A stretch of 64,000 bases of DNA from a candidate division WWE3 bacterium. Lineage in GTDB: Bacteria > Patescibacteriota > 4484-211 > GCA-002791395. The stretch spans positions 445,984 to 509,983 of the forward strand of contig JAAXWF010000001.1 in the NCBI GenBank assembly GCA_013335095.1, written 5' to 3'. Of this stretch, positions 42,001-64,000 are shown piece by piece. Every line of letters begins with the position of its first letter. The first letter of the stretch is position 1. Position numbers: made by a program.

Positions 42001-45000
42001 ATCTCATTTTCGCTTACGGGAGTGTTACGAATATCTAGTACTTTTAAGTTTTTTAAATCAGCGATGGTACCGGGAATCGTGTCAATCTTGGTGTTGGCAA
42101 TGTTTAATGTTTGTATATTCTTAAATGAACTGATCGAATCGGGAAGTACTTGTAGTGGTTGGGAACTGAGATTTAAGTGGCACACTGCGTTAGGATCCCG
42201 TAGTGCTTCACTTAAGCTAATATAAATTCGAGGATGATCACAATTTAATCCTGATTGACTCTGTGTCTCTACTATTTGGGTATTCTGCTGATCATGAAGT
42301 TGTCGAATTTCTTGTGTCATGAGAATAAACATTGAAATTCCAACTCCTAAGATAATACAAAGCAATAAAATAATCTGTGTTGTTCGGCTTATCGGTAGTT
42401 GATTATCCATCGTAATTATTTGTCACCACTGCCAATGTCGTTATATGTAATCGATTAAGTGAGAAAGGTTCGCATTCTTTTCCGATTTGTTGAGAAATGA
42501 TTCCAAGATCAAAGATATCGATGATGCCATCCTGATTTACGTCCATTCTTGTTGGAGGTACTTCAAGACCTTTGGCATCCTGGGTATTCGTTAATGTTTC
42601 GGTGACGTAGGTTATGTCAGATTGATCAACAATACAATCTTGATTTACGTCACCAAGTGGATAGGCTCCATTGGATCTCATCGGAGCCGCTTCGGATTCT
42701 GGTTTAGGAAAAAGTTTTGCATATAAATCGTCCCCAACCGGCATAATGTAGCCAGAGACGATAAAAAGTCCGACCATAAGTACTGATACTAATCCGAGGA
42801 GTTGGGTTAATTGTTGATCGCGCATCTTATTTCTTTATACCACTGTATGAATAAATATTCAGTGGCAATCATGTAAATTGTTCTACCCATCAATGAAAAC
42901 TCTTGACCACATGGACAAATTTCTCAAAATTCAGTACAGTATCGTCATGACTATTGGACAGGTTTTAGAAAATAGTAATATTGGTCATTTAGAATCAATG
43001 GTGATGCTCTCTAGGATTTTAAAGCAAGATAAATCATATTTATCTGCTCATGCCGAACAGGAGCTTACTCCAGATCAATTAAATAAATGGCATGAAATGA
43101 GAGTTCAAGCACATGCAGGTATTCCAATGGCATACATTATTAACGAAAAAGAATTTTATGGGTTAACTTTTTTTGTCGATCAGCGAGTTCTTATTCCTCG
43201 TCCAGAAACCGAAACGATTGTTGATCAAGCCCTCGCATATTGTGATAAAAGAAATGGCCGATCACTTAAAATTTTGGAGTTAGGGTGCGGCAGTGGGGCC
43301 GTTATTGTTAGCCTTGCTCATACGCTTCAAACCCCGCCTCATACGACTGATGGTATTTCATTGGTTGCTACCGATATATCAAAAGGAGCACTAGAAATAG
43401 CTCGAAAGAATGCTGAAACGTTTGGTGTAAATAATCTAATTGAATTCAAACAAGGGGATATGTTTGAACCGGTATTCGGAGTGAAGTTCGATTTGATTTT
43501 GGCTAATTTGCCCTATCTTCCCACTGAAGAAGCGCTACTTAATCGCCATGAACCACATACGGCATTGGTCGGTGGTTTTGAAGGCGATGAAATGAATAAT
43601 CAATTATTAAACAGTTATAAGGATTATTTAACACAAGAAGGTTTGGTCATCTATGAGGGGTATAATGGCGCTGTTACCTCATGCAATTATAACGGTGAAT
43701 CAGTAACAGCCTCATGATTGTATCGTGATTATAAATAAAGGTTTTTCTCCAAAACATACGTCTGAACATTCACTTCCTCCAGGGCAATACGAAACGCATG
43801 ATTTTCCAGTGCTTTCTAAGGGGTATACACCCAAAATAGATACAAATAATTGGAAGATTCGTATTCATGGATTAGTTTCAAATCCGATTGTTCTTAGTTG
43901 GAATGAGTTTAATGCATTACCATCTTCAGAAATTACTACTGATATTCATTGTGTAACAAAATGGTCGAAATTTAATACCGTATGGAAAGGTGTTTCTCTT
44001 GATACGTTGGTTGAACTCGTTGGACTTCAAGGCCGGGCGACACATGTTTTGGCGTTCACCTATGATGATTATTCGACTAATCTTCCTGTAGCCGACATTC
44101 TTTTAAACAAAGCTTATATAGTCACCGAATTTGATCAGAAACCTCTGGCCAGCGAACATGGCGGACCAGCACGTTTATTGGTGCCTCATTTATATTTGTG
44201 GAAAAGTGCTAAATGGATCAATGAGCTTAAGTTTATTGATCATGAGGAATTAGGATTTTGGGAACTGCGAGGGTATCATCGATATGGTGATCCATGGAAA
44301 CAACAACGTTATGATAGCGATGAATGATAATAATTGGCAAAAAGCTCGGTTAGTTAAGTCTAAGATGATCGCTACCGATGTGAAATCATTAACATTTCAG
44401 GTGGACGAGTGGATCAAACATAAAGCTGGTCAGCATTATGATATTCGATTGACCGCGGAAAATGGGTATCAAGCACAGCGTAGTTATTCAATAGCATCTG
44501 CTCCGGAAGACTTTGGAATTGTTGAGTTCGGTATTCAGCTTCTATCAGAAGGGGAGGTATCACCGTACTTATTTACGCTACAAGAAGATGACGAGATCGA
44601 GATTCGAGGGCCGTTAGGACAGCATTTCGTTTGGGAAACTTCATTATCAGGACCACTGATTCTTATTGGAGGAGGAAGTGGAGTCGTTCCGCTTGTAAGC
44701 ATGCTGCGCCACCGATATATGGCGGGCGATACTCGAAAAACCATTTTTCTTATAAGCGCCCAAAGTCTTGATCACGTGTTATATCGCGATGAACTCGAAG
44801 CATATATGCAAAACGATCCAAATGTTGAGATCCCCATTACATTGACCCAGCAAAAGCCAATGGGGTGGTTAGGGTATGAGCGACGAGTTGATAAAGAGAT
44901 GCTTCAGGAAACAATGGGTGATGTATTATCTCAAAAACCGTCTATTTATATTTGTGGTCCAACACCGTTCGTTGAGGCGTGTGCATCTGGCTTGATAGAC

Positions 45001-63000: not shown

Positions 63001-64000
63001 TCGCCGAAGTTCCGGAGTGGACCTATCCAGACGAATGGACCAAATATACCTCACAAACTTCAAATCCGATTCAGTTAATTGCAGGTAAAAAGTATTTTGT
63101 CGAAATATTACAAACCGAAAGTGTTGGGGCGGATAGTGTAACGCTCGCATGGATTCAGCCAGGAAGTACAACCCGCGAAATTATTCCAGATCAGTATTTT
63201 AGCGCACCAACGGTTGCATCACCTTCGGCGGACTTAAATATCGATGGGCGAGTGGATGTGTTTGATTTAGGGATTTTGGCGGCTCACTATGGTCAAACAA
63301 TCGTAAGTTCCAGTGATACGCCCACCTATCGATCGGATGTGAACGGAGATAATACAATCAATGTGTTTGACCTGGGTTTGCTAATAGGACAATATAGTCA
63401 TTAGTAATTTTTGACTTTTTAAGCATGAGCCATATAGACAAGAAAAAAACATCCAACCAACTTTTTTTATTGATCTCTTCGATCGGAGTTATGGCTTTTT
63501 TGTTAACCGCAACACAGTATCCAAACTGGTACGATAGCTTTTTTCCTAAGCCTAAAAGTGAAGCTGCTGCAATCAACGGACCGTTACGTAAAAATACCGC
63601 AAATCCACGATATTTTACGAATAACTCCGGCAAATCGATTTATCTGACCGGCACACATACCTGGACGATTCTACAGGAATCGCGTACGGTAAATGCTGCA
63701 TTTTCAAATGTTTCAAATGACGTATATTTTAAAGCACTTACCGATAATAAACATAACTTTATTCGCCTCTGGAATGCAGACAATTTTATTGTGGATTGGG
63801 GTACATCGTCTGCGCCATTTGAAGAATGTATGGTTCCACATCCTTTTGCCTTAACTTCACCAATCACTGCGACTGATAATTCGGATTATTGTAATAAACT
63901 CTACGCAAACTTTTCACAATCAAACCCACCAATCAAATTCGATTTATCGAAGCTGGATTCAACATTCGTGAGTAAGCTGCGAAGTGTAATCGAAACCGCC

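Follow-up and report, generated by a model that had tools for sequence, protein, structure and literature searches.

The assembly of proteins through cohesin and dockerin modules is best known from cellulolytic Firmicutes, and the cohesin-dockerin pairs of cellulosomes are usually species-specific. Outside these bacteria dockerins are orphans in most organisms, and for many non-cellulosomal dockerins no partner is known. A survey by Peer et al. in 2009 is said to have covered non-cellulosomal cohesin and dockerin modules across bacteria and archaea. The present analysis concerns a 64,000-nucleotide stretch of DNA from a candidate division WWE3 bacterium (Katanobacteria, candidate phyla radiation (CPR); assembly GCA_013335095.1, contig JAAXWF010000001.1, positions 445,984 to 509,983), referred to here as the window. 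It encodes six dockerin-bearing proteins, P1 to P6, and a 287-residue candidate scaffoldin (35364-36227) with two compact cohesin-like modules, and related genes are found at two further loci of the same genome. Together they probably constitute a self-contained, non-cellulolytic, cellulosome-like display system at the surface of this bacterium, in which the dockerins would bind the cohesin-like modules.

On the likenesses collected here, the closest analogue is the system of Ruminococcus flavefaciens, and non-cellulosomal pairs, represented by the structures 2vo8 and 2xdh, are also close. The cellulosome of R. flavefaciens and the WWE3 set share single-cohesin proteins with a sortase-type C-terminal signal (ScaE, with one type III cohesin and LPXTG, compared with WWE3 proteins of one cohesin-like module and a putative, LPxTG-like signal), adaptors combining cohesins with a dockerin (ScaA/ScaB/ScaC), clustered scaffoldin genes (the sca cluster, compared with six consecutive genes at the WWE3 locus L011) and several sequence groups of both dockerins and cohesins, and the cohesins of ScaE and ScaB are among the best structural matches of the WWE3 module. 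They differ in that the WWE3 host belongs to the CPR, with three contigs that sum to a genome of at least 1.15 Mb; the earlier interpretation of this DNA from its sequence alone (the sequence-only reading) had rightly spoken of a reduced-genome bacterium. The WWE3 modules are ~110 residues long instead of ~140-180, carry two invariant cysteines and number at most two per protein, and a system-specific N-terminal leader is present. No cellulases or CBM3 were seen in the WWE3 set, the cargo being of PL7, GH140-like, PL9-like, GDSL esterase and phytase/metallophosphatase type. With the non-cellulosomal modules the WWE3 set has in common that non-cellulolytic enzymes are tagged and that modules are few per protein, and 2vo8 (Clostridium perfringens GH33) and 2xdh (Archaeoglobus fulgidus) belong to its top structural matches; the non-cellulosomal pairs are however isolated, whereas the WWE3 set is multi-locus and apparently hierarchical, with anchors and adaptors, and its cohesin subfamily, unlike those cohesins, mostly escapes Pfam.

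Within the CPR, expression of cohesin and dockerin genes was reported for a metagenome-assembled genome of Ca. Shapirobacterales, a Microgenomates lineage (PMC9123182), 'cellulosome-related' genes were noted in SR1 and OD1 genomes and sortases with predicted sorted proteins are encoded in WWE3 genomes (PMC3812714), and an essential dockerin-domain protein, SEML1_0315, was described in Saccharibacteria (PMC10633639). These reports come from the same superphylum and likewise place dockerins on surface proteins that degrade or bind glycans, but they are domain annotations without architecture, and none of them deals with compact cohesins, anchors and adaptors, three syntenic loci or a leader. No paper joining WWE3 with cohesins, or describing the compact cohesin family or the leader, was found in the literature searched. 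The occurrence of cohesin and dockerin domains in the CPR is already known at the annotation level; by comparison with the literature searched, the WWE3 system, the compact cohesin family and the leader seem to be new.

A six-frame regular-expression scan of the window located 12 Ca-loop segments of the dockerin type, arranged in pairs 35-36 residues apart and confined to the open reading frames (ORFs) of P1 to P6, all of which were recovered at exactly the coordinates at which the sequence-only reading had placed six ORFs with a two-repeat module. Each protein bears two segments of ~22 residues, composed of the 12-residue, EF-hand-like loop D-x-[ND]-x-[DN]-x-x-[IV]-[DNS]-x-x-D and a helix, the first segment of P1 being degenerate past the loop. 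Pfam Dockerin_1 (PF00404, gathering cut-off 22.9 bits) matched all six proteins with 24.0-31.8 bits (P1 31.6, P2 24.0, P4 29.7, P5 25.3 and P6 27.7 bits). The modules of P2 to P6 match 2y3n_B and 4fl4_A, which are dockerins of solved cohesin-dockerin complexes, with E-values of 3.6e-5 to 0.09 (P2 against 2y3n_B, 3.6e-5; P3 against 4fl4_A, 1.1e-4). The dockerin-like nature that had been proposed for the module was thereby upheld, as was its position, N-terminal in P1 and P2 and C-terminal in the remaining four, and on sequence evidence the modules of the six proteins are genuine two-segment dockerins. Another kind of EF-hand repeat was considered and rejected, as Dockerin_1 scored above every EF-hand model.

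No other dispersed DNA repeat of the window is as strong as the dockerin-coding module (family D1, pairs I1/I2). Where the neighbouring genes for P3 and P4 encode their dockerins, at the ends (55197-55372 and 57222-57397), they share 89% DNA identity over a 176-nt repeat, in which the last 33 codons specify identical residues, and the sequences upstream of the two modules are unrelated; this combination indicates an apparently recent module exchange or gene conversion.

The sequence-only reading had seen no cohesin-like gene in the window, an omission that is understandable because Pfam misses the modules of the protein concerned. This statement has to be revised, since the candidate scaffoldin, encoded 6 kb upstream of the start of the dockerin region and bearing neither a dockerin nor a C-terminal anchor, carries two divergent cohesin-like modules. 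This protein and the dockerin proteins have an N-terminal motif in common. Its internal repeat, two units of ~105-110 residues, scored 136 compared with 37+/-7 for shuffled sequences, and module 2 is 28% identical to module 1 and retains both invariant cysteines of the family. Its close homologues numbered two among 5.8 billion clustered proteins. The family is rare, 34 representatives being retrieved when 1.84 billion were searched exhaustively with a profile; its module measures ~110 residues in 46 of 46 instances and holds two invariant cysteines.

It is likely that this ~110-residue family is a divergent, compact cohesin. The family member P0015 matched Pfam Cohesin (PF00963, cut-off 24.1 bits) with 28.5 bits across the shared domain. 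When the family consensus was compared with Pfam, Cohesin ranked first (17.6 bits, E 0.0046), as it did for P0018 (L011:14045-14629), which is encoded in the same genome as the window (16.4 bits, E 0.011). An AlphaFold 2 (AF2) model of module 1, built as a single domain with 42 family sequences, reached a predicted local distance difference test (pLDDT) score of 95.8 and a predicted TM-score (pTM) of 0.84, and its nine best matches in a Foldseek search of the PDB were all cohesins with a probability of 1.00 and modest E-values (8e-4 to 6e-3), among them 6kgf/6kgd/6kge/6kgc, 2vo8 (TMq 0.67), 2zf9, 2xdh and 9gvb. These top cohesins span CohA2 of C. acetobutylicum, the GH33 cohesin of C. perfringens, ScaE of R. 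flavefaciens and 2xdh of A. fulgidus. The modelled beta-sandwich superposes better on cohesins than on other folds, a statement that refers to the fold as a whole. The single-domain model replaced an earlier full-length model based on three sequences, which was mediocre (pLDDT 60) and in which cohesins were the only well-superposed single-domain matches.

Four architectures recur in the family: a leader followed by two modules, a PT linker, an Ig-like domain and a C-terminal dockerin; a signal peptide followed by one module, a PT linker, LPx[ST]G, a hydrophobic stretch and a basic tail; a signal peptide followed by one module and a dockerin (~200 residues); and a signal peptide followed by one module and a C-terminal transmembrane (TM) segment. 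This is how adaptor and anchoring scaffoldins are built. Dockerin_1 was detected by Pfam in the same chain in 8 of the 36 family proteins, and the LPx[ST]G motif with its hydrophobic stretch and basic tail in at least nine, two tails of this kind scoring 13.1-13.3 bits with TIGR01167 against a cut-off of 15.9. The scaffoldin-borne dockerins are directly preceded by an Ig-like domain of ~85 residues with weak matches to Glucodextran_B and Big_12, as in the 472- and 212-residue proteins of L011 (11974-14042), P0022, P0004, P0005, P0009 and P0026, and the enzyme-borne dockerins have no such domain. In architecture alone, this arrangement resembles the type II X-dockerin dyads found on primary scaffoldins and exemplified by C. 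thermocellum CipA X-Doc.

Three loci of the genome, namely the window, L011 and L014 (HGA91 locus tags), together hold no fewer than 10 cohesin-like modules and 11 dockerins. A word-indexed search with the family alignment returned two proteins and exposed L011 as the second locus of the genome; two proteins encoded there have an LPxTG-like anchor, one has a TM anchor and two are adaptors. At L014, the scaffoldin-like P0022 is flanked by a 1038-residue protein with a dockerin and a GDSL esterase and by a Pel9A-like (PL9-like) beta-helix protein. The modules of this one genome are 20-61% identical to each other. Among the dockerins, those borne by enzymes form one group (46-84% identical; VFDLG[IL]L..HYGQ) and those borne by scaffoldins another, with a GIFAG signature (VFD[LV]GIFAG.YG), while some members are divergent; such diversity would be expected of a system with several binding specificities. 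A second organism has syntenic counterparts of all three loci (L012/L013, L018 and L019), and there a dockerin protein gene lies 34 nt after the two-module gene of L012. A dockerin was found within reach of the cohesin-like genes at eight of nine distinct loci (window, L011, L012, L014, L015, L017, L018 and L019). The dockerin, cohesin-like and leader hidden Markov models (HMMs) gave no match in ~90 kb of unrelated control loci, taken from distant Elusimicrobia and Saccharibacteria, and two scans of metagenome contigs found nothing.

Several results weigh against a cohesin-based display. The candidate scaffoldin was assigned to no family in Pfam or NCBIfam and its modules had no Pfam Cohesin match, and searches of the PDB sequences with the family profile and with P0015 found no solved cohesin and no cohesin, respectively. 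The alignment of the family with CipA cohesin 7 (1aoh_A) by hhalign was partial, covering the first two strands with 37% probability; a wider cohesin profile drew on 10 CipA-like sequences only and was too narrow to serve. The module is ~30 residues shorter than the typical cohesin of ~140 residues, the Foldseek E-values (8e-4 to 1e-2) and TM-scores (0.4-0.67) are modest, and reeler, YcnI, BslA and MSP Ig-like sandwiches follow the cohesins closely in the Foldseek list with similar TM-scores. At L016, which encodes the most divergent family member, P0035, no dockerin was found within 10 kb; neither a sortase gene nor an SLH domain was seen in the window and the recovered loci; and substrates are uncertain for four of the five enzymes.

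The absence of a sequence link to solved cohesins and the comparable scores of other sandwiches would suit a generic Ig-like surface or adhesin domain, which would stand beside dockerins merely since both are common surface building blocks in the lineage; the dockerins would then bind cell-wall glycan, each other or nothing and act as Ca-stabilised spacers, and many non-cellulosomal dockerins indeed lack a known partner. This explanation is unlikely, however, in the face of a structural ranking headed exclusively by cohesins, of a family member that exceeds the cut-off of Pfam Cohesin along its entire domain and a consensus with Cohesin as its best match, of architectures copying those of anchoring (ScaE-like, LPxTG) and adaptor (cohesins, X and dockerin) scaffoldins, and of the tight adjacency of cohesin-like and dockerin genes repeated from locus to locus.

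The display of enzymes on the bacterium's own scaffoldins also has to be compared with the use of a host's scaffold, which the sequence-only reading had named as one possibility and the need for which is not supported, given the two modules of the window and the at least eight at the two other loci. In such a scenario the dockerin enzymes would dock on cohesins of a host or neighbour and the bacterium's own cohesin-like proteins would serve another purpose. CPR bacteria are often episymbionts (PMC10633639), and the interval 42403-64000 itself contains no cohesin. Against this stand the bacterium's own cohesin-like modules at three loci, which are partly fused to dockerins of the same kind and share a leader with the enzymes. 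The species specificity usual for cohesin-dockerin pairs is a further general argument against docking on foreign cohesins, and this scenario is regarded as very improbable compared with the self-contained display preferred here.

The leader in question consists of a TM helix followed at fixed spacing by [FL]P-x3-[LIF][LF]-x2-L[FYN]PK-x2-S-x-A-[AS], and is common to the two-module scaffoldin, P1, P3, P5, P6 and the adaptors, the N-termini of P2 and P4 being divergent. Within the window, the leader HMM recognized system proteins only (P1 with E 1.4e-21), including the product of a seventh cluster gene starting at 63425, an ORF outside the training set that was found with E 5e-9 and whose C-terminus, with any dockerin it may carry, lies beyond the window; it likewise found dockerin proteins of L015, L017, L018 and L019 on which it had not been trained. 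A role as the general signal peptide of the organism was rejected, as the HtrA, Ctp, PBP2, VWA and LRR (leucine-rich repeat) proteins of the window lack the leader.

The leader is present on most components without a C-terminal anchor. Such an anchor never occurs on leader-bearing proteins and occurs on most single-module proteins with a classical signal peptide, P0008, P0016 and P0030 having a classical signal peptide and no anchor. The S-x-A site, with A or S after it, agrees with what the -3/-1 rule demands of a signal peptidase I site, yet it lies unusually far, ~15-17 residues, past the hydrophobic core. Such a distance would accord with a variant of the display reading in which the leader remains uncleaved as a signal anchor, each enzyme is held at the membrane by its N-terminus, and the cohesin-dockerin contacts cluster enzymes in cis or bridge cells in trans instead of capturing secreted enzymes. 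The same variant would account for the distribution of C-terminal anchors, and the dockerin-only P1 would be easier to explain as a membrane-anchored docking point. Since the invariant S-x-A with its following A or S obeys the signal peptidase rule, and since P0008, P0016 and P0030 make the dichotomy between leader and anchor less than strict, the uncleaved form of the leader is considered less likely than not.

With regard to the cargo, the sequence-only reading was confirmed for P2 and P3. P2 is solidly predicted to be a PL7 alginate/polyguluronate lyase, with a Pfam Alginate_lyase2 match of 139.5 bits (1.9e-40), PDB matches to 5zqi (3.5e-62) and 1uai (3.5e-60), and RSELR, QIH and YFKAGAYTQ in its translation, which were counted as the three PL7 motifs R(S/T)E(L/V)R, Q(I/V)H and YFKAG(V/I)Y(N/T)Q. 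For P3, called glycoside hydrolase (GH)-like before, the GH140-like assignment is solid at the level of domain matches: DUF5060 (65.2 bits, cut-off 27.2) and the apiosidase-like domain PF13204, the former DUF4038 (52.1 bits, cut-off 26.5), both exceed their Pfam thresholds, and the protein matches 4n0r_A with E 3e-22.

The descriptions of the other three enzymes held in part. In P4, described as lyase-like with a CBM, the dockerin stands and both other calls are weaker, Alginate_lyase (13.8 bits) and CBM_4_9 (23.4 bits, cut-off 25.9) being sub-threshold and the PDB sequences providing no match except to its dockerin. PA14 was verified in P5 (7.4e-11) and P6 (8.8e-14). The beta-helix of P5 is less firm, with 24.2 bits for Beta_helix against a cut-off of 25.9 and a PDB match to the parallel beta-helix protein 9rx2_A at 4e-4, and so is the GH domain of P6, with a partial, N-terminal match to Glyco_hydro_42 of 29.3 bits.

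P1 has an analogue in another organism, P0036. Its gene overlaps by 8 nt the downstream gene 41931-42410, which encodes a small LRR protein with a membrane anchor; co-transcription of the two genes is probable, and the LRR protein may therefore be a further surface interaction partner. In the relatives, phytase and calcineurin-like metallophosphatase domains occur on dockerin or scaffoldin proteins (L015 4374-6785, L017 1567-3960 and L019 1303-3870), so that the cargo is not restricted to carbohydrate-active enzymes. The cargo seen altogether comprises PL7, GH140-like, beta-helix/PA14, GH42-like/PA14, GDSL esterase and phytase/metallophosphatase domains, with a PL9-like gene in the neighbourhood. 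Neither cellulase families (GH48, GH9 and GH5) nor CBM3 were found in the window or the recovered loci, and as judged from this gene content the system is not a cellulosome in the strict sense.

In the mechanism proposed for the display system, the enzymes would be exported through Sec by means of the leader, and their dockerins, folded around Ca2+, would dock onto the cohesin-like modules. Sortase or TM segments would hold the proteins with these modules at the envelope, and the adaptors would form a second tier. The cell surface would in this way be coated with lyases and hydrolases beside the cell's own transporters, and the targets may be anionic, pectin- and alginate-like polymers of a biofilm matrix or of a host capsule. 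A more far-reaching version, in which a complete hierarchical non-cellulolytic 'cellulosome' with a hitherto unrecognized compact two-Cys cohesin class and a dedicated leader, TM-[FL]P-x3-[LIF][LF]-x2-L[FYN]PK-x2-S-x-A, routing the unanchored components, strips capsule or biofilm polysaccharides from a host or neighbour, is put forward tentatively, as a possibility that falls short of being probable.

The positions and contents of the features are collected in Table 1.

Table 1. Location and composition of the features of the window and of related loci
Feature	Position	Strand	Content
Candidate scaffoldin, 287 residues, HGA91_02600	35364..36227	-	N-terminal membrane leader and two compact cohesin-like modules
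Leader, residues 11-59 of the scaffoldin	36051..36197	-	Defined by alignment and leader HMM
Cohesin-like module 1, residues 63-173	35709..36041	-	AF2 model with Foldseek PDB matches
Cohesin-like module 2, residues 176-287	35367..35702	-	Family HMM E 3e-31
VWA + SdrD-B-like surface protein, 812 residues	36279..38717	-	Directly upstream of the scaffoldin gene; Pfam VWA_2 8e-17
P1, 140 residues	42403..42825	-	Leader and dockerin (about 42469-42657), nothing else
P2	48800..49990	-	N-terminal TM segment, dockerin (about 49580-49753), PT linker, PL7 lyase (about 48806-49444)
P3	53358..55373	+	Leader, DUF5060, apiosidase-like (GH140-like, former DUF4038) TIM barrel, PT linker, C-terminal dockerin (55197-55370)
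P4	55374..57398	+	N-terminal TM segment, catalytic region of uncertain family, CBM4_9-like, C-terminal dockerin (57222-57395)
P5	58052..60685	+	Leader, right-handed beta-helix (weak), PT linker, PA14, C-terminal dockerin (60509-60682)
P6	60741..63404	+	Leader, GH42-like TIM-barrel N-terminal region, PT linker, PA14, C-terminal dockerin (63228-63401)
Seventh cluster gene	63425..64000, cut by window end	+	ATG 63425; leader (…FFPKPKSEAAA…), then glycoside-hydrolase-like start
L011, same genome	HGA91_04670 region		Six consecutive genes, six cohesin-like modules, three dockerins
L014, same genome	HGA91_03920 (P0022)		Scaffoldin-like: two modules, X-like domain, dockerin
L015	Another organism		Three leader-dockerin proteins, then three cohesin-like genes
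L017	Another organism		Six modules, four dockerin proteins
GC-rich ORF sites	336-827, 6948-7601, 15825-18530, 20849-22375, 24069-24758
GC-rich ORF sites, continued	28780-29759, 34641-35066, 45822-48757, 50015-50800

Among the neighbouring genes, the VWA + SdrD-B-like protein may be an adhesin belonging with the system; the order of its gene and the two-module gene is kept in the orthologous locus L012/L013 (L012 2-613). At L016, a signal peptidase I (Peptidase_S26) gene (11310-11864) lies directly downstream of that of P0035.

The GC content of the genes in the window is bimodal, with ~17 ORFs of 50-62% GC (GC3 0.5-0.74) standing singly or in small groups among core genes of 38-45% GC, and all GC-rich ORFs except a PadR regulator lack a Pfam family. 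The same arrangement recurs in the independent assembly L010 and is therefore not due to a chimeric assembly; the slot of 34641-35066 is occupied by different genes in the orthologous locus L012. A 74-nt AT-rich element is found twice with 82% identity (28688-28761 and 29242-29315), ahead of the paralogous GC-rich ORFs 28780-29190 and 29346-29759, which share the C-terminal motif NNG.G.VTYV.T....C.FVR.CPP.

The region 830-2390 comprises 1.5 kb of ~50% GC without an ORF of at least 120 residues and contains duplicated hairpin or terminator-like elements (895-947/2106-2158, 1105-1140/2333-2368 and 1693-1718/2042-2067). Repeated small RNAs may be encoded there; no RNA gene was detected when the window was scanned with Rfam and for tRNAs, and 830-2390 had no Rfam match. 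A 316-residue ORF at 50925-51875 has an ATP-cone and, of the large subunit of ribonucleotide reductase (RNR), only the N-terminal all-alpha domain; as the catalytic barrel is absent from the window, it is a truncated or remnant RNR-like gene.

In a CPR genome of the ~1-Mb class, no fewer than three loci with 10 cohesin-like modules and 11 dockerins thus appear to serve a single system, the cargo of which seems directed at anionic or pectin-like polymers and not at cellulose. If the binding is true, the family would represent a compact cohesin class mostly missed by standard HMMs, and cohesin-dockerin systems may for this reason be under-counted in metagenomes. Protein engineering would gain small (~110 residues), orthogonal cohesin-dockerin pairs, and there would be grounds to assume an N-terminal sorting signal specific to the lineage. 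A concrete, testable model would also be at hand for the way in which ultra-small bacteria gather degradative enzymes on the cell surface or at the interface with a host. Should the complete hierarchical 'cellulosome' also prove true, enzyme scaffolding would be a core surface strategy of an ultra-small episymbiont.

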